Positions 999-49,210 of a stretch of 64,000 nt of DNA are shown here, one piece after another. Origin of the DNA: an uncultured delta proteobacterium (GTDB lineage Bacteria > Desulfobacterota > Binatia > JACPRU01); assembly GCA_963745025.1 (NCBI GenBank), contig CAVUWD010000018.1:1-64000 (forward strand), read 5' to 3'. The notes below the pieces were generated by a model, which did not search any database, had not been told where the DNA came from, and saw only the letters and a list, made by a program, of their open reading frames with translations. Each line of letters begins with the position of its first letter. Positions within the stretch are counted from its first letter, which is position 1. The position numbers and the translations under genes were made by a program.

Positions 999-1729
999 AG
1001 ATCGACCTCAACGCCGATGTCGGCGAAGGCTACGATGATCGCGCGCTGATGCCCTATCTCACCTCGGTGAACGTCGCCTGCGGCGGCCACGCGGGCGACG
1101 CTCGAACGATGGCGGATACGGTCGCGGCCGCCCTCGAGCTCGGCAACGCCGTCGGCGCGCACCCGAGTTACCCGGATCGCGAGCACTTCGGCCGGCGCGA
1201 GCTCGCGCTTCCGCTCGCCGCGATCGAGGCGTCGGTCCGCGAGCAGGTGGGTGCGCTCGCAGCGACGGCCGCCGCAGCGGGCGCGCGACTCGTTCACGTC
1301 AAGCCGCACGGGGCCCTCTACAACGTCGCTGCCCGCGAGGTTGCCGTCGCCCGTGCCGTCGCTCGCGCGGTCCGCGACGTGGATCCCGAGCTACGTCTGA
1401 TCGGACTCGCCGGGGCGATTCTCCTCGAGATGGCGGGTGAGATGGGCCTCGCGAGCGCCGGCGAGGGCTTTGCGGACCGCCTTTACATGGCGGACGGCTC
1501 GCTCGCTCCGCGCACGCTTGCGGGCGCGGTCATCGTCGATCCCGCGGCGGCGGCGGAGCAAGCGTTACGGATTGCCCGCGACCGCGAAGTCGTTGCCGCC
1601 GACGGCACGCGCGTTCGAATTCGTGCCGAGACCTTGTGCATCCACGGCGACACGCGAGGCGCACCCGCGATTGCGCGCGCCGTGCGCGAGCGCCTGCTCA
1701 ACGCCGGGATCGAGATCCAGGCGCTCTGA
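995..1729 (+). CDS. pxpA: 5-oxoprolinase subunit A (LamB/YcsF family)
   Basis: IDLNADVGEG, NVACGGHAGD, HVKPHGALYN and CIHGD motifs. Confidence 0.95.
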   Translation: MKIDLNADVGEGYDDRALMPYLTSVNVACGGHAGDARTMADTVAAALELGNAVGAHPSYPDREHFGRRELALPLAAIEASVREQVGALAATAAAAGARLVHVKPHGALYNVAAREVAVARAVARAVRDVDPELRLIGLAGAILLEMAGEMGLASAGEGFADRLYMADGSLAPRTLAGAVIVDPAAAAEQALRIARDREVVAADGTRVRIRAETLCIHGDTRGAPAIARAVRERLLNAGIEIQAL

Positions 1730-2186
1730 GCAGGTCTCCTTCGACGTACGCCCAGGCGGGGACGAGCCGTGCATCCTGCTCGCGACGGACGGTCAGGAGC
1801 ACGCGGGCGTAGAGGCTCGCTCCGCCCGGACGAAAGCCCTCGAGCCCGTCGATTCGTGGCAGACGCTCTTCCGGATCGTCGAAGACGAGGATCTCGCCAC
1901 GGACGTCGTCGCAAGCTCCGCCTTCGTCGCCCGAGGCGGTAGGCCCGGGCGCGAAGGCGTCCGCCTGCTTGGCGACATCGGCCAGGGGATCGGCGCTACC
2001 GCGAGCGAGAATGCTCCCCGCAGGCACGGTGAGCACCGGATCGCCTGCCGGCAGCACGTACACGCGCCCGCGCACGATCGCGTTCTCGATCGACCGCGCA
2101 CCTCGACAGAACCGCTGGTGGTACCGACCGCCGCGCTTCAGCGTTCCGTAAACGAAGAGGCGCAGCGTTGCGGCCGCGGCATTCAC
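1698..2186 (-). CDS. gamma-glutamylcyclotransferase (GGCT/AIG2-like) family protein
   Basis: LFVYGTLKRG N-terminal motif, VRGE, IDGLEG, AWAYV. Confidence 0.85.
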   Translation of the reverse strand: MNAAAATLRLFVYGTLKRGGRYHQRFCRGARSIENAIVRGRVYVLPAGDPVLTVPAGSILARGSADPLADVAKQADAFAPGPTASGDEGGACDDVRGEILVFDDPEERLPRIDGLEGFRPGGASLYARVLLTVRREQDARLVPAWAYVEGDLLRAPGSRSRR

Positions 2187-2240
2187 GGAAGTAAGCCCTC
2201 AGGTTTTGCAAGACCTCAGCAAAGCCGTCGCAGAATGATC

Positions 2241-2410
2241 AACGCGGGTGTTTGTGTTCGAGCCGTACTCGGATCGAACACAAACACCCGCAACCGCGCG
2301 CGAAGTGCGGAACAGTTCGTGCCGCGCCTTGGGTATTGCCTTCCGCGCTTCGCGCGGCGGCGTGGGGTTGGGGTCGACCCGAATTCGGATCGACCGCAAA
2401 CCCACGCGCT
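2241..2410. repeat. Triple-hairpin dyad element, copy 1
   Basis: Perfect 18-bp IR 2244-2261/2274-2291, central IR, 18-bp IR 2360-2377/2390-2407; same layout as the copies at 7675 and 46725. Confidence 0.9.
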
Positions 2411-2517
2411 CTTGCTTGCTCCGCACATGGCGGTAGCGTCCTCCAGCAGAAACTGAGGCGTTACTTCGACAGCACGGTGCATTTCGATACGAGATTCGAT
2501 CGCAACGTAGCACGGAT

Positions 2518-3126
2518 TCAGCGTGACGCACGCGGGTCGAGGCGCGCGAGGGCCTCACGGTACGCTTCCAGCGTATCGATGTCGAAGAGGCTCAACCCGG
2601 AGGGATCGACGGCGAGCACATCTTCTTCCGAGACCTCGACGAGCCGCGCGAGCTCGACGAGCCTGCCCGCTCGCCGCTCTCCCGACGCGAGCATCGTCGT
2701 CGCGATCGCCGCTACCCGCTTGCGATAGACGGCGAGCAGCGGTTGCGGCACGCCCGCGGAAACGACGACCGCGCCATCGCGGTCGCGAGCGCGCTCGGCG
2801 AGAATCCGGCCGATCGCCGGCTCGAGAAACGGATGGTCACAGCCACAGACGAAGCCGAGATCGGTGCGCGCGGCCGCCAGACCGTAGAGAATGCCGGCGA
2901 CCGGCCCCTGCAGGGGAATCTCGTCCTCGACGACCCGGACCGGATCCGGCAGCGGAGGGAGTCGCACGTGTGGCCCACGGACGACGACGATCTCGCTCGA
3001 GCCGGCGGCCAATCGTCGGACGACGCGCTCGATCAGGGTCTCCGCGCCGAAGGGGAGAAGCGCCTTCGGCCGGCCCATCCGCGAGCTTGCGCCGCCGGCG
3101 AGCACGATGGTCGTGAACGGCTCCAT
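2518..3126 (-). CDS. mobA: molybdenum cofactor guanylyltransferase
   Basis: VLAGGASSRMGRPKALL, GPVAGI, CGCDHP, QPLLAVY motifs. Confidence 0.88.
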   Translation of the reverse strand: MEPFTTIVLAGGASSRMGRPKALLPFGAETLIERVVRRLAAGSSEIVVVRGPHVRLPPLPDPVRVVEDEIPLQGPVAGILYGLAAARTDLGFVCGCDHPFLEPAIGRILAERARDRDGAVVVSAGVPQPLLAVYRKRVAAIATTMLASGERRAGRLVELARLVEVSEEDVLAVDPSGLSLFDIDTLEAYREALARLDPRASR

Positions 3127-3264
3127 CGCCTCAGACTACTCCGATCGGTCGGGTCTTTGCATACCCATTCCCCCGTGTCACATTGCGCTTCGTGAGCGCG
3201 CGCACGTTGGATGGCGGGTGATTTCGGGATCTGCGCAGATGGTGAGGCGGCAGCGATCGCCAAG

Positions 3265-5772: not shown

Positions 5773-6515
5773 TTCTCGGAACCACCGAGCGTTCGCACGA
5801 ATGCCCGCGCTTCCGGCGCACCGGACTCCATGAGCTCGCGTGCCCCACCGAGAAACGCGAGACGGCTGCGCTCGAGCAGCGCGATGCGATCCCCGAGGGA
5901 TAGGGCCTCGCGCAGATCGTGGGTTACGAAGACGATCGTCTTGCCGAGGTCGCGGACGAGCGCGCGAAACTCGGAGCGAATCTCTTCGCGGGTCGGCGGG
6001 TCGAGGGCCCCGAACGGCTCGTCCATCAAGACGAGCGGCGGATCTGCGGCGAGCGCCCGAGCGACGCCAACACGCTGGCGCTCGCCGCCGGAGAGCTCGG
6101 CGGGATAGCGCGCCGCGAAGCGGTCCGGATCGAGCCCGACCAGCCGCAGCATCTCGCGAACGCGATCGGCGATGCGCTCGGTGGCCCAGCCGAGAAGCGT
6201 CGGCATGAGGGCGACGTTTCGCGCCACGTCGAAGTGAGGAAAGAGGCCCCCCTCCTGGATGACGTAGCCAGTGCCACGGCGAAGCTCGACCGGATTCCAC
6301 GCCGTCGTCGCTTTGCCGGCGACGCGCACCTCGCCGCGGCTCGGGAGGAGGAGGGCGTTGACGAGCCGCAGGGTGGTGGTCTTGCCCGATCCGCTGCGCC
6401 CGAGCAGGACCACGATCTCGCCGGCTTCGATCGAGAGATCGAGATCTTCGACGCGGGGCGGCAGCCCCCGCTCGACGAACGAGACGCCCTGGAATTCCAC
6501 CTGCACGCCGCTCAT
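5769..6515 (-). CDS. osmoprotectant-type ABC ATP-binding protein
   Basis: GRSGSGKT, LSGGERQR, MDEPFGALD, FVTHD. Confidence 0.92.
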   Translation of the reverse strand: MSGVQVEFQGVSFVERGLPPRVEDLDLSIEAGEIVVLLGRSGSGKTTTLRLVNALLLPSRGEVRVAGKATTAWNPVELRRGTGYVIQEGGLFPHFDVARNVALMPTLLGWATERIADRVREMLRLVGLDPDRFAARYPAELSGGERQRVGVARALAADPPLVLMDEPFGALDPPTREEIRSEFRALVRDLGKTIVFVTHDLREALSLGDRIALLERSRLAFLGGARELMESGAPEARAFVRTLGGSEK

Positions 6516-6611
6516 TGCGGCGCGATCCTCACCCACGTGTTTCTTCGACGCAAGCAACTTTCTCCACTTTGCCACTTGCCTCGGGTCGTCGGGATTCGTA
6601 GCCTCGCCGCC

Positions 6612-7631
6612 ATGGGCAGCCGCGGGGCCGCACGCTGGCGGGAGAGCGATCGTCCCGCCCCGGACGACCGTTTCTCGATCGAGCGAGTGTTCGATTCGCA
6701 ACGGGACTCGACTCTCGCCGAGGACGTGCGGCGGGGCCTCGGTGGGCGGCGCAAGTCGGTTCCTCCGAAGCACTTCTACGACGAGGAGGGATCGCGTCTG
6801 TTCGACCGCATTTGCGAGCTCCCGGAATACTACCTGACACGCTCGGAGGAGCAGCTGCTGGAGCGCTCGGCGCGGGAGATTCTCGACGTCGCGCGTCCGA
6901 CCGACCTGATCGAGCTCGGCAGCGGAGCGGCGCGCAAGACGCGGCTCCTCTTCGACGCAGCCGAGTCGCTCGGCATCGCAGTTCGATACCACCCCGTCGA
7001 CGTTTGCGAGCCGATGCTGCGGGCGAGCGGCGAGGAGCTGCTGCAGCGCTACCCCTGGCTCGAGGTGCACGCCCTGGTCGCGGATTACGAGCGTCATCTC
7101 GACGTGCTTCCCGATGGGGACCGCCGACTGGTCGCGTTTCTCGGCAGCACGATCGGCAACTTCGCGCCGCCGCGAGCGCTGGCGTTCCTGCGCGGGATCG
7201 CCGCGCGCTTGCGCGCGGGCGATCACCTGCTGCTGGGCGCCGATCTGGTGAAGCCCGTCGCAGTGCTCGAACGCGCATACGACGATGCCGCGGGTGTCAC
7301 GGCGGAATTCAATCGCAACGTGCTACGGGTCATCAATCGCGAGCTCGACGCTGATTTCGATCCGACCGCGTTCGACCACGTCGCGTTCTTCGATCCTCGC
7401 CGCCGCCAGATCGAGATGCATCTGCGCTCGCGCCGCGCCCAACGGGTGTCGCTACGCACGCTCGGCATCACCGTCGGCTTTCGCGCCGGGGAGACGCTGC
7501 ACACCGAGATCAGTCGCAAGTTCACTCGCCGCGGCTTGGAAGGCCTGTGTCGGCGGGCAGGCTTCGGCGTGCGGCGCTGGTTCAGCGCGGCAGCCCCGTC
7601 GTTCGCGTTGCTGTTGTGCGAACGCGTGTAG
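6612..7631 (+). CDS. egtD: L-histidine N-alpha-methyltransferase
   Basis: PPKHFYD..GS.LFDRIC.LPEYYLTR, ELGSG, FLGSTIGNF, AYDDAAGVT, HTEISRKF. Confidence 0.92.
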   Translation: MGSRGAARWRESDRPAPDDRFSIERVFDSQRDSTLAEDVRRGLGGRRKSVPPKHFYDEEGSRLFDRICELPEYYLTRSEEQLLERSAREILDVARPTDLIELGSGAARKTRLLFDAAESLGIAVRYHPVDVCEPMLRASGEELLQRYPWLEVHALVADYERHLDVLPDGDRRLVAFLGSTIGNFAPPRALAFLRGIAARLRAGDHLLLGADLVKPVAVLERAYDDAAGVTAEFNRNVLRVINRELDADFDPTAFDHVAFFDPRRRQIEMHLRSRRAQRVSLRTLGITVGFRAGETLHTEISRKFTRRGLEGLCRRAGFGVRRWFSAAAPSFALLLCERV

Positions 7632-7674
7632 ACGGGGATGGGTCTGACGTATCCATGGGCCGACTGAACGGAAC

Positions 7675-7843
7675 GACGCGCGCGGTTGCGGTCGAGCCAT
7701 ACCCGGCTCGACCGCAACCGCCCGCAACCGCGCGGAGCGCGGAAGGTTTGATTCTTCCGCGCAGGGTTATTGGCCCCGCGCTTCGCGCGGTGGGTCCCCG
7801 TTCCGGTCGACCCGAGTATGGCTCGACCGGAACAGGGACCGCT
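7675..7843. repeat. Triple-hairpin dyad element, copy 2
   Basis: 18-bp IRs 7678-7695/7708-7725 and 7793-7810/7823-7840, one mismatch each; conserved loops and central arms. Confidence 0.9.
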
Positions 7844-7902
7844 ACCAGGATCGCCAAACGTGACGGGGCATTGAACGGAATGCGCTGCCCGCTCCCCGGA
7901 CG

Positions 7903-8730
7903 TCAGGCGAGCTGCTCGGGGCGCTCGAGAAGCTCCTTCATTCGCGACACCGCGCGCGCGCAATAGAAGCCGTCCTCCACGCGCTCGTCGTAGGTGTACT
8001 TGAGCGTGGAGACCCGTCGGACCGCCAGCCGGCCATCGTCCTCGCCGATCGCGACGTTGCGGTACGCGCCGACGACGACGAAGATCGGAATCGTGCCGTA
8101 CTCGTAGAGGTGATGGTACGCTCCGGCGATGCCGACGCTGCCGAGGTTGGCGACGAAGGCGCTCGCGTAGAGCGGATCTTCGAGCAGCATCCGAGCGGGC
8201 AGCAGGTTGAAGTAGTCGAGCAGACGCCCGAACACGACGACGCCGTCGATCGCCAGCCGCGGCATGCGGGACAGGATCGCCATGTCTCGGTCGGATTGCG
8301 TCTTCTGTCCGGCTCGGCCGCTCCGTACGCTCTCGCCTACGCTTCGCGCCATCGCTTCCAGGGTCTCGTGCGGGTCGAAGATACGCTTGCGCACGTAGAG
8401 CGGGGCATCGGTCTCGAATGCCTCCTTGCCGCTGAAGGAGATTGCGACGTCGGCACGCTGGTATAGGCGTCGGCCGACGATGTAGCGATTCAGCCGGGGA
8501 AACTCGTGGAGCGCTCGCGTGATCGACCGCAGCACCAAGTGAAAGAACGTGAGGGGAACGTCGTGCTCGCGCGAGAAGGCATCCGTGAAGGCGAGCGCAG
8601 GGTCGACCGCGACGTCCTGCTCGAACCAGACCAGCGACTCGTTGCGCCGGCGCATGAGGAAAGGCATTAAGCGTCGCACCAGAGGCACGCGCTCGGCGAG
8701 CACCGCGTCGGGCCGGCCGAAGAGAGGCAT
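7903..8730 (-). CDS. stand-alone 2-oxoacid dehydrogenase E2 catalytic-domain-like acyltransferase
   Basis: FPRLNR, ANLGSVG, TYDERVEDG (variant of DHRxxDG); GAGGAG RBS before ATG at 8730. Confidence 0.7.
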   Translation of the reverse strand: MPLFGRPDAVLAERVPLVRRLMPFLMRRRNESLVWFEQDVAVDPALAFTDAFSREHDVPLTFFHLVLRSITRALHEFPRLNRYIVGRRLYQRADVAISFSGKEAFETDAPLYVRKRIFDPHETLEAMARSVGESVRSGRAGQKTQSDRDMAILSRMPRLAIDGVVVFGRLLDYFNLLPARMLLEDPLYASAFVANLGSVGIAGAYHHLYEYGTIPIFVVVGAYRNVAIGEDDGRLAVRRVSTLKYTYDERVEDGFYCARAVSRMKELLERPEQLA

Positions 8731-42982: not shown

Positions 42983-46667
<3,685 letters not shown>

Positions 46668-46724
46668 GAAAGGGGGATCGGCGTAGGGCCGCTGCGTCCG
46701 CCTCGAATGCTTCGGACGGCGAGC

Positions 46725-46891
46725 AACGCGGTCGGTTGTGGTCGGCCCGTACTCGGGGCGATCACAACCGACCGCAACGGCGCGGAGCGCGGAGGCAGTA
46801 ACCCGCGACCTGGTCTATTGCTTCCGCGCTTCGCGCGGTGGCTGGATCTGCCGGTCGACCCGAGTACGGGCCGGCCGGCAGATCCAGCGCT
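46725..46891. repeat. Triple-hairpin dyad element, copy 3
   Basis: IRs 46728-46745/46758-46775 and 46841-46858/46871-46888; loops CCCGTACTCGGG and CCCGAGTACGGG are exact reverse complements. Confidence 0.9.
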
Positions 46892-46981
46892 TCACGGATC
46901 TCCGACGCGTGTGGCGATGACTTCGGGATACGTCCCTTGTCCGCTTTTCTCGCGGCGTGGGTTGAAGTAGGGATCGTTCCC

Positions 46982-47843: not shown

Positions 47844-47983
47844 CCCTGGCCTCCGGGGCCATTCCCTACCTTCCTCGAGCGGATTGCGCCAGCCCGATGC
47901 GGCGGCTCCATCCGCTGGACGGGAGGCGCGGCTTCGATCGCCGCAGTCAGAGCGAAGAGAATGACGCGCAAGAACTTTTGCGC

Positions 47984-49210
47984 ATGACGACACCCGCCCT
48001 CTCGCTCTACTGGTTTCTCTACCTCGGGGCGCTCGGCGTCCTGCTGCCGTTCTTCAGCCTTTATCTGAGCGACAATGCCGGGCTGAACGCGACCGAAGTG
48101 GGCGCGGTGGTGACGATGTCTCCGCTCGTCGCGCTGATCGCTCCGACCGCGTGGGGGCGGATCGCCGATCGCTCGGGCTCGCCGATACGCGTGCTGGCGG
48201 CCGCCACGCTCGGCGCCGCCGTCTTCACGGCGATGTTCCCCTGGCTCGAGGGCTTCTGGCTGCTCGCCGCGGGCGCAGCCGCGCTTGCGCTCTTCGCGAC
48301 GGGCGTGATCCCGCTCGTCATCTCGGTGACGCTCGCGGCGCTCGGCGAGAGCGCGCTCTCGGCGTTCGGGCGGGTCCGCGTGTGGGGCACGGTCGGCTTC
48401 CTGGTCCTCGTCGTTCTGTTCCCGGTGGCGCTGCACGCGTTCGCGGCGGGCCGCGTTCCTCCGTCGCGACCGGCTGGACCGTCGGAGCCGTACCTGTGGG
48501 TGATGTTCCCGGCGGCCTCGTCGTTGATCCTCCTCTCCGCGCTGCTCGCCTGGCGCATTCCCGAGACGAGGCAGCTGCAACGCCACGCGCGTCGGAGCGG
48601 CTGGCTCGAGCTTCGCCGCCACGTGCCGTTCGTTCGTTTGCTCGTGCTGTCGGTCGGCACGTACCTGTTTTTCCAGGGCCCGATGAGTCTCTTTCCGCTC
48701 TATCTTCGCGGTCACGGGCGCGGGCTCGAGACGCTCAGTCAGATGTGGATTCTCATGCTGCTGCTGGAGATCCCGCTCATCGCCTTCTCCGGCACGGCAT
48801 TGCGCCACCTCGGCCCGCGCGGACTGCTCGGCGCCGGCCTGGCCGCGGGCGGCCTCCGCTGGCTGGTCTGCGGCCTGGTTCACGATCTTCGCGCGGTCTA
48901 CGCGGTGCAGCTGCTGCACGGCGTGACCGTGGCGGGAGTCGGAGTGGGCTCCGCGCTGTACGTCGAAGCGTCCGTTCCCGCGCGGCTGCGTTCGACCGGT
49001 CAGGGGCTGAACGCCACGGCCGGCGTCGGGATCGGTTCGATCCTCTCGAACGTCGCGGCCGGCTGGCTGATGGACCACGTCGGCGTGAACGCTCCCTTCG
49101 TGGTCGGCGGTAGCGGCGCGCTGCTGCTCGCGATGATGATTCCGCTTTGGTTGCCGCCGCCGAGCCAGCTCGCGCGGAGCGAGCCGGCGCTCGAGTCAGC
49201 GCCGCAGTAG
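47984..49210 (+). CDS. MFS transporter (MFS_1-like, HcaT/NupG-related)
   Basis: WGRIADR, FGRVRVWGTVG, LLHG, STGQG; about 12 TMs. Confidence 0.88.
   Translation: MTTPALSLYWFLYLGALGVLLPFFSLYLSDNAGLNATEVGAVVTMSPLVALIAPTAWGRIADRSGSPIRVLAAATLGAAVFTAMFPWLEGFWLLAAGAAALALFATGVIPLVISVTLAALGESALSAFGRVRVWGTVGFLVLVVLFPVALHAFAAGRVPPSRPAGPSEPYLWVMFPAASSLILLSALLAWRIPETRQLQRHARRSGWLELRRHVPFVRLLVLSVGTYLFFQGPMSLFPLYLRGHGRGLETLSQMWILMLLLEIPLIAFSGTALRHLGPRGLLGAGLAAGGLRWLVCGLVHDLRAVYAVQLLHGVTVAGVGVGSALYVEASVPARLRSTGQGLNATAGVGIGSILSNVAAGWLMDHVGVNAPFVVGGSGALLLAMMIPLWLPPPSQLARSEPALESAPQ

Follow-up and report, generated by a model that had tools for sequence, protein, structure and literature searches.

The window, i.e. 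the whole 64-kb stretch of DNA that was analysed (G000:C18:1-64000), is part of a 5.65-Mb assembly of 20 contigs with a G+C content of 66%, which is estimated to be 92.65% complete with 7.6% contamination. It carries three copies of a triple hairpin (2241..2410, 7675-7843 and 46725-46891), which were found where the original prediction had placed them and with the layout it had described, namely two outer palindromes that enclose a central inverted repeat. The variable outer stems pair as claimed, with 16-18 of 18 Watson-Crick pairs per outer stem in all three window copies, and the loops of copy 3 (CCCGTACTCGGG and CCCGAGTACGGG) are indeed exact reverse complements. With regard to the bounds of the element, the position of the core was confirmed, whereas its length was not: conserved flanks, terminal inverted repeats (TIRs) and target duplications were located approximately 35-55 bp outside the ends given there. 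The coordinates of the extended copies, of the neighbouring genes and of further features of this genome are summarised in Table 1.

Table 1. Position of the element copies, of their neighbouring genes and of related features in the genome. Positions without a contig name refer to the window.
Feature	Position	Strand	Remarks
Element copy 1, full extent	2191..2464	+	left end GTAAGCCCTCAG..., right end ...CTGAGGCGTTAC; extent derived from the flanks of 58 copies
Copy 1, left outer palindrome	2244..2291	+	18-bp arms, 12-nt tip GCCGTACTCGGA; 18/18 Watson-Crick pairs
Copy 1, central inverted repeat	2295..2359	+	each half in turn a small palindrome (CGCGCG)
Copy 1, right outer palindrome	2360..2407	+	module type as left, opposite orientation; 16/18 Watson-Crick pairs
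Element copy 2, approximate extent	7628..7876	+	core 7675-7843; ends degenerate
Copy 2, outer palindromes	7678-7725 and 7793-7840		17/18 and 17/18 Watson-Crick pairs
Element copy 3, full extent	46683..46931	+	no intact target duplication
Copy 3, outer palindromes	46728-46775 and 46841-46888		16/18 and 16/18 Watson-Crick pairs
Copy 1 neighbour, GGACT gene	1698-2186	minus	5' end toward element
Copy 1 neighbour, MobA-like gene	2518-3126	minus	3' end toward element
Copy 2 neighbour, EgtD-type methyltransferase gene	5919-7631	plus	3' end toward element
Copy 2 neighbour, ORF with 2-oxoacid dehydrogenase acyltransferase domain	stop at 7903	minus	3' end toward element
Copy 3 upstream neighbour, metH	stop codon 46665-46667		element begins 16 nt past the stop
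Copy 3 downstream neighbour, MFS transporter gene	47897-49210		copy 3 upstream of the gene
Young-copy locus L057	G000:C6:283177-286340		element at 1461-1704 of the locus (C6:284637-284880); CTCCCGCC at 1453-1460 and 1705-1712
IS copies, three identical units of about 1.88 kb	C6:484413-486296; C6:486303-488186; C19:80229-82112		the two C6 copies in tandem
RAYT-like genes	C13:187849-188862; C11:419233-420321		Y1_Tnp domain (PF01797) 39.8 and 36.7 bits; NCBIfam REP_Tyr_transpos (NF047646) 74.6 and 55.7 bits, below the cut-off of 80

Two of the neighbouring genes deserve a comment on their own. The gene metH extends over two frames (window positions 42983-46801 and 45918-46667); the first ORF matches positions 2-71 of the Met_synt_B12 profile at residues 938-1007, and the second one matches positions 69-273. 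This split indicates a frameshift near window position 46000, which is either a true break or an assembly error. The EgtD-type ORF comprises 570 amino acids, and the Methyltransf_33 domain covers residues 267-568 only. No domain was assigned to the N-terminal approximately 265 residues, and it is possible that this ORF is over-extended.

In silico folding yielded three hairpins in the single-strand DNA fold of copy 3 (z = -9.8) as well as in the RNA fold of copy 1 (z = -9.4), and in both cases none of 200 shuffles was as good. In the RNA fold of copy 1, the two ends of the element additionally pair with each other.

The three window copies are members of a large family. With these copies as seeds, an nhmmer search of two rounds gave 195 hits representing 98 loci in the 5.65-Mb genome, of which 58 are full length (at least 150 of 172 model columns); the proposal of a dispersed, mobile and non-coding family was thus supported. 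A scan of the whole genome by structure only, for the 18-12-18 layout and 15 or more Watson-Crick pairs, detected 184 hairpins, and with the family loop present in 126 of them these hairpins occur far beyond chance. When oriented by their loop, the outer hairpins are variants of one module, in which stem positions 1, 2, 9, 10 (TT/AA) and 15-17 (TCG/CGA) are conserved and positions 3-8 and 11-14 are variable. The tip of the module (NCCGTACTCGGN) is conserved as well, and CCG/CGG in this tip lengthens the stem to 22 pairs with a 4-nt loop. Within each element the left module is in forward and the right module in reversed orientation, and the sequence of the element is near-identical from either strand. 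The copies are scattered singly in intergenic DNA.

A search for the hairpin pattern in one genome per species (185,579 species), from which the records of the genome under study were possibly omitted, returned 12 stretches; 11 of these belong to one uncultured delta proteobacterium assembly, and the remaining one looks like a chance match. A DNA search of 30 relatives detected the element in a genome of the same genus (G001, 29 matches) and single hairpins in another one (G005). The pattern was also present in 103 metagenome stretches, and the 80 that were retrieved contain 87 places, 39 of them full length. That the element had not been recognised as a named family is consistent with the absence of any Rfam match at the gathering score in the 64-kb window. 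The best match below this threshold reached 35.1 bits in comparison to a cut-off of 90 bits and concerned a miRNA precursor model, and at E values up to 1 only chance-level matches to long-hairpin miRNA models occurred.

To define the ends, the 58 full copies were printed with 70 nt of flank and compared. Conservation continued for approximately 40 nt outside the originally reported ends, and for up to approximately 55 nt in one subfamily, and terminated in inverted-repeat ends (left GTAACGCCTCAGTCTTCGCC..., right ...GGCCAAGACTGAGGCATTAC). The full element thus comprises approximately 245-275 bp, and the 170-bp triple hairpin is its core. Terminal inverted repeats of approximately 20 bp (consensus GTAAYGCCTCAGTCTTCGCC) were found on both ends of most full copies, and in many copies an 8-bp direct repeat is located directly outside these ends. 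Ungapped scores for the TIRs, alone or together with the duplication, had their ends misplaced by indels and were replaced by a test for shared 8-mers in the stretches 22-58 nt outside the core on both sides, which is independent of end-calling. An exact shared flanking 8-mer was present in 20 of the 58 full copies in comparison to 51 of 3306 (1.5%) mismatched-flank pairings, in which the left flank of one copy was combined with the right flank of another. The remaining 38 full copies, all three window copies among them, have no exact flanking 8-mer. With no intact duplication in any of the three, including copy 1, and with the degenerate ends of copy 2, the window copies look old.

For a young copy at locus L057, an empty site was identified in a metagenome contig of 2995 nt (run X4; Logan contigs of four metagenome runs). 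This contig joins position 1452 of the locus to position 1705 and thereby skips 252 nt (ends CT..AC), and eight letters at the joint fit either side. It matches positions 801-1351 with 16 other letters and positions 1705-3164 with 89 other letters. The empty site is represented by one contig of a relative, approximately 94-97% identical and aligned at 90% likeness, which covers 51 nt on its shorter side owing to a second small indel nearby. Such a bridging contig is the expected form of an uninterrupted target with a single copy of the duplication. The element was therefore inserted with an 8-bp target duplication. TIRs, 8-bp duplications and a precise empty site together point to cut or copy insertion by a DDE transposase.

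The original prediction had noted that no cognate enzyme is encoded in the window. This is true of the window itself, but a candidate IS66-family transposase is encoded elsewhere in the genome. A genome search with the terminal repeat located three identical units of an insertion sequence (IS; Table 1), the ends of which (GTAAGGCCTCAGTCTCCGT) are near-identical to those of the element. The copy on C19 is flanked on both sides by the 8-bp duplication AACGATCG. Each unit contains an ORF of 468 amino acids (in the C19 copy at C19:80635-82041) that matches the IS66-family transposase model NF033517 with 218.5 bits (cut-off 180), PF03050 with 131.3 bits and zf-IS66 with 29.4 bits; in the whole genome, PF03050 has four matches. 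An upstream ORF of 105 amino acids matches DUF6788 with 27.0 bits, just below the cut-off of 27.2 bits. The end of the element copy at C11:478272 (GTACGGCCTCAGTCTCCGTAG) is identical to the IS end at 20 of 21 positions (counted by hand). A relative of this IS is located at contig ends in a genome (G026) from another family of the same class; its end, GTAATGCCTCAGTCTTCGTC, agrees with the consensus of the element at 19 of 20 positions (counted by hand). The IS has nothing but these approximately 20-bp ends in common with the element, and a genome-wide profile search gave no family hairpin match inside the autonomous IS.

Since the three copies are identical, the IS looks like a recent arrival in this genome, whereas many copies of the element are old. 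At the DNA level the IS was not found in G001, although this genome has copies of the element; with a completeness of 82%, G001 provides no proof of absence. An IS66-family IS that could be delimited in G001 has other ends (GTAACCGTTCAC). With regard to the tandem pair of the IS (G000:C6:484413-488186), the two copies are separated by a spacer of 8 bp (CTTCTGGA), which is repeated after the second copy, as if the latter had been inserted exactly at the end of the first.

Because an IS of the same genome has ends almost identical to those of the element, is flanked by a duplication of 8 bp and codes for an IS66-family transposase, the element is most probably a MITE of the IS66 (ISBst12-group) lineage and not a REPIN or an attC-like element. 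Taken together, the best explanation, to which we assign a probability of about 80%, is that a non-autonomous transposon (MITE) of approximately 245-275 bp with an IS66-family mover has the triple hairpin at its core. We infer the mobilisation by this transposase from the ends and from the length of the duplication. In this model, a DDE transposase from the single-ORF ISBst12 group of the IS66 family would act in trans on the MITE. The layout of the latter starts with a TIR of approximately 20 bp (GTAAYGCCTCAGTCTTCGCC), a linker of approximately 20 nt, an outer palindrome and the central palindrome, followed by the second outer palindrome in opposite orientation, a linker and the other TIR. 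The three internal palindromes, which are absent from the autonomous IS, would then represent cargo.

This assignment agrees with what the available part of the literature describes for such elements. MITEs are defined as elements of less than approximately 300 bp with TIRs, which are mobilised in trans by the transposase of a parental IS (PMC3189936, in the part of the source that was available). The element is short, non-coding and multi-copy (approximately 245-275 bp at 98 loci), and TIRs, a target duplication, a precise empty site and IS-like ends were all found. As far as that part of the source goes, it also resembles bacterial MITEs in having the TIRs of an IS in the same genome, a duplication of the length typical for this IS, many dispersed copies and deletion derivatives. 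It differs from them, to the same extent, in that only the approximately 20-bp ends are common to the IS, and the interior is not derived from the IS; instead, it consists of three palindromes, the stems of which are subfamily-specific with complementary arms. For the IS itself, ISDge4 (IS66 family, ISBst12 group) is described in the available part of PMC12898284 as having a single ORF of 449 amino acids; its ends read GTGACTACTCAGCA and GTAACTGCTCAGCA, and its direct repeat measures 8 bp. The candidate parent IS likewise has one transposase ORF (468 versus 449 amino acids) and an 8-bp direct repeat, and its ends begin with GTAA/GTGA followed by CTCAG, as do those of the ISBst12 group in the same part of that source. 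Unlike the members described there, the window element has no transposase, and its tie to the group consists of the ends and the duplication length. In a partial literature search, which covered sources other than ISfinder, no IS66-derived MITE of this build was found.

Insertion of the element has been active recently. It is absent from G001 at the orthologues of two young G000 copies. According to a reading of the coordinates, approximately 4 of the 16 loci in G001 appear to be common to both genomes (C13:239741, C11:119162, C7:20183 and C19:59716), and at approximately 7 of the 16 the orthologous interval of G000 is much shorter. G001 provided no clean empty sites; the flanking genes align with 79-92%, and the intergenic DNA is too diverged for a single duplication copy. 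At locus L082 (G001:C17:363560-366604), the comparison with G000:C19:59716-59886 revealed a shared orthologous insertion. In G001, this copy has undergone an internal deletion that begins with the left palindrome and removed the whole core; its left end and a few final bases of its right end remain.

Besides the full copies, 40 partial loci were detected. By inspection, a terminal repeat or a linker is still recognisable on at least one side in most of them, and a few are without any recognisable end (e.g. C6:287333 and C20:154115). Several partial loci lack an outer palindrome, which was lost precisely between short direct repeats (GCGCGG), and some of the partial loci are one-hairpin versions. 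Derivatives with one or zero outer palindrome retain both ends. A 51-nt palindrome deletion was also observed as a contig joint at L057 (1502->1554). Most of the partial loci thus look like deletion derivatives. The genome contains other repeats, too: a third family of palindromes (CTACGGGCTACGGGAAAG-N12-CTTTCCCGTAGCCCGTAG) is represented by a dozen or more copies in G000 (among them C16:1010177, C16:1018152, C11:437481 and C10:158245), and repeats of the CTACCGG/GCCGGTAG type flank at least four loci of the element (e.g. C8:197678, C11:541100 and C8:227794).

The pairing of the arms was analysed with 140 gap-free outer palindromes (70 left and 70 right), which were drawn from the HMM-defined loci whatever their pairing. 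In these units, 2326 of 2520 cells (92.3%) are Watson-Crick pairs, plus 124 G.T or T.G pairs; in 1000 partner shuffles, the share of Watson-Crick pairs averaged 64.9% and did not exceed 69.0%. Up to four Watson-Crick pair types occur at the variable positions (e.g. A:T 53, C:G 52, T:A 26 and G:C 6 at position 6). In a set of 71 distinct units from G000, G001 and one locus of a third genome (G003), 96.2% of the cells of the 22 pairs are paired versus 75.9% in shuffles, and none of 500 shuffles reached the observed value. Two-sided change occurred at 15 of the 22 pairs (282 cells versus 93.5 in shuffles), and controls with partners slid by 1-3 columns gave 23-47% paired cells. The variable stems thus keep their pairing far beyond chance, which is in line with the proposal that the structure is either selected or regenerated. 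Among 71 further distinct units from metagenomes, a set ascertained with a search pattern in which six pairs of one hairpin per locus were prescribed, 1186 of 1278 cells are Watson-Crick pairs. RNAalifold, applied to 48 diverse cores, predicted both outer hairpins, with 33 of 52 consensus pairs compensated; it did not recover in these cores the long central inverted repeat that single-sequence folds show and gave two small CGCGCG hairpins instead, probably due to many alignment gaps in this region.

In a spanning tree of 107 stem haplotypes, 72 compensated doubles were counted in comparison to 3.9 expected if the substitutions on each edge of the minimum spanning tree are placed at random; 119 changes were one-sided. 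These events are edges of the spanning tree and not of a dated phylogeny. The 72 doubles comprise 17 transition pairs, 23 flips (G:C<->C:G or A:T<->T:A) and 32 other transversion pairs. Transition pairs can go via a wobble pair, and transversion pairs account for 55 of the 72. In two young clusters of 9 and 5 copies (less than 10% divergence), siblings differ by single compensated pairs and, in one case, by a T:A, T.G, C:G series through the wobble pair. A further difference between siblings in these clusters is that the 14-nt tip of a hairpin has been cleanly turned into its reverse complement. An inverted tip was found in 3 of the 140 units, two of them in copies with siblings of at least 90% identity, and more occur in the metagenome set. 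Some compensated variants recur in several copies; these could mark lineages or could have been imported when copies recombined with each other.

As to the way in which the element moves, mobility as folded ssDNA had been considered in the form of attC-like or REPIN/RAYT systems; TIRs, 8-bp duplications and a precise empty site were found instead. In a REPIN-like system, the inverted hairpins would be REPs that are recognised as folded ssDNA and moved by a RAYT (HUH/Y1) transposase. Two RAYT-like proteins are encoded in this genome (Table 1), and the outer palindromes do resemble REPINs in being one inverted module with a conserved tip, conserved stem positions (1, 2, 9, 10 and 15-17), compensated stem changes and an intergenic location. 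The pairing is conserved, too. IS200/IS605-type and RAYT transposition are described as duplication-free, however, and the TIRs, the 8-bp duplications and the precise empty site do not fit. The left and right modules are not mutually complementary, and the stems differ within an element, so that a single long REPIN hairpin is impossible; REPIN doublets, in which the REPs pair mutually and no duplication occurs, are disfavoured. Moreover, most of the 40 partial copies keep a recognisable TIR or linker on at least one side. A clustering of the triple hairpin around a RAYT gene, which had been suggested as a sign of such a mover, was not observed, as neither RAYT-like gene is flanked by it or by REP sequences of the same kind. 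The gene on C13 has no such flanks, and its product shows a weak DnaA-C-like match at the C-terminus (23.1 bits, below the cut-off of 31.5 bits). The gene on C11 is flanked by an inverted 31-nt repeat (AGGGGACGTTCTTAACCTTCGTGACCTTCGT; C11:419173-419203 and 420352-420382), which is unrelated to the element and recurs in approximately 13 inverted doublets about 100 bp apart (e.g. C11:417239-417340 and C16:144077-144182). These doublets make up a REPIN-like family distinct from the element, with the product of the C11 gene as candidate transposase. In view of the different or absent flanks and of the 8-bp duplications, mobilisation by a RAYT transposase is very improbable.

How the arms stay complementary is a separate matter. 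Our preferred reading, held at about even odds, is a concerted evolution of the arms at the DNA level rather than RNA selection at each locus. A change in one arm would be copied to the other by template switching within the palindrome or by arm-to-arm conversion, and in addition only well-formed copies would found new subfamilies. This reading is favoured over a host RNA function because the doubles are mostly transversions, some tips are cleanly inverted and a bias toward gene 3' ends is lacking; the clean loss of palindromes between short direct repeats is also counted in its favour as a DNA-level sign. Template switching is known, from the part of PMC8794818 that was available, to create and repair hairpin stems in RNA genes. 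Multi-base compensated changes, tip inversions and perfect stems are common to the cases in that part of the source and to the present palindromes, which differ in being mobile and probably non-functional DNA, with a mechanism suggested by patterns. Selection for foldability, be it for transposition or as RNA, would predict equal pair counts. A structured RNA under host selection (an mRNA 3' stabiliser, a terminator, a protein-binding scaffold or an sRNA) would account for the strong covariation, for the very stable folds (z = -9.8 and -9.4) and for the wobble series in one young cluster. Each window copy follows a gene 3' end, as had been noted, but this does not hold for the family, in which the neighbouring genes turn their 3' end toward the element in 55 cases and their 5' end in 50, and the RNA scaffold originally considered thus loses its positional support. 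Both flanks are clearly coding at 32 loci, where the genes are convergent in 8 cases, in tandem in 19 and divergent in 5 (background 373, 1158 and 477). This tally is rough and based on the coding potential of the flanks; the crude gene caller covers 75.5% of the genome and places 5' ends too far upstream. The five divergent loci fit an RNA function poorly. The same applies to the near-identity of both strands, to the lack of a U-tract after the hairpins of the three window copies, to the missing Rfam match at the gathering score, to the transversion pairs among the doubles, to the frequent deletion of hairpins and to insertions that vary among close relatives. A host RNA function is therefore considered clearly unlikely. 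It is also possible, if rather unlikely, that the palindromes are needed for the propagation of the MITE itself, for instance as a cruciform hinge for end synapsis or in a single-stranded intermediate, and that pairing is maintained via selection among copies. Subfamilies with quite different stems have all multiplied with their pairing kept, the conserved stem and tip positions suggest a recognised shape, and the further metagenome units are paired to a similarly high degree; nevertheless, the autonomous IS has no such palindromes, derivatives with one or zero outer palindrome retain both ends, although they may no longer move, and tip inversions and transversion doubles suit a copying mechanism at least equally well. 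That foldability of the DNA is required for, or strongly boosts, mobilisation by the IS66-family transposase, so that the palindromes are not passive cargo, is accordingly doubtful. If it were true, the spread of a DDE-type MITE would select for DNA secondary structure and leave the stem sequence free to drift.

The named candidate transposase and the MITE class remove most of the novelty that had been claimed for the element. MITEs are an ordinary class of mobile DNA, and the unusual part of the present one is its three palindromes with hypervariable and yet complementary arms. The approximately 140 palindromes in one genome and the 71 further distinct metagenome units, the arms of which covary mostly by transversion pairs, represent a resource and a natural system for the question to what extent the 'compensatory evolution' of hairpins is a mutational by-product of palindromic DNA rather than the result of selection. 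The answer matters directly wherever covariation is taken to prove an RNA function. In addition, the little-studied ISBst12 group of the IS66 family would gain a MITE, found in an uncultured lineage.
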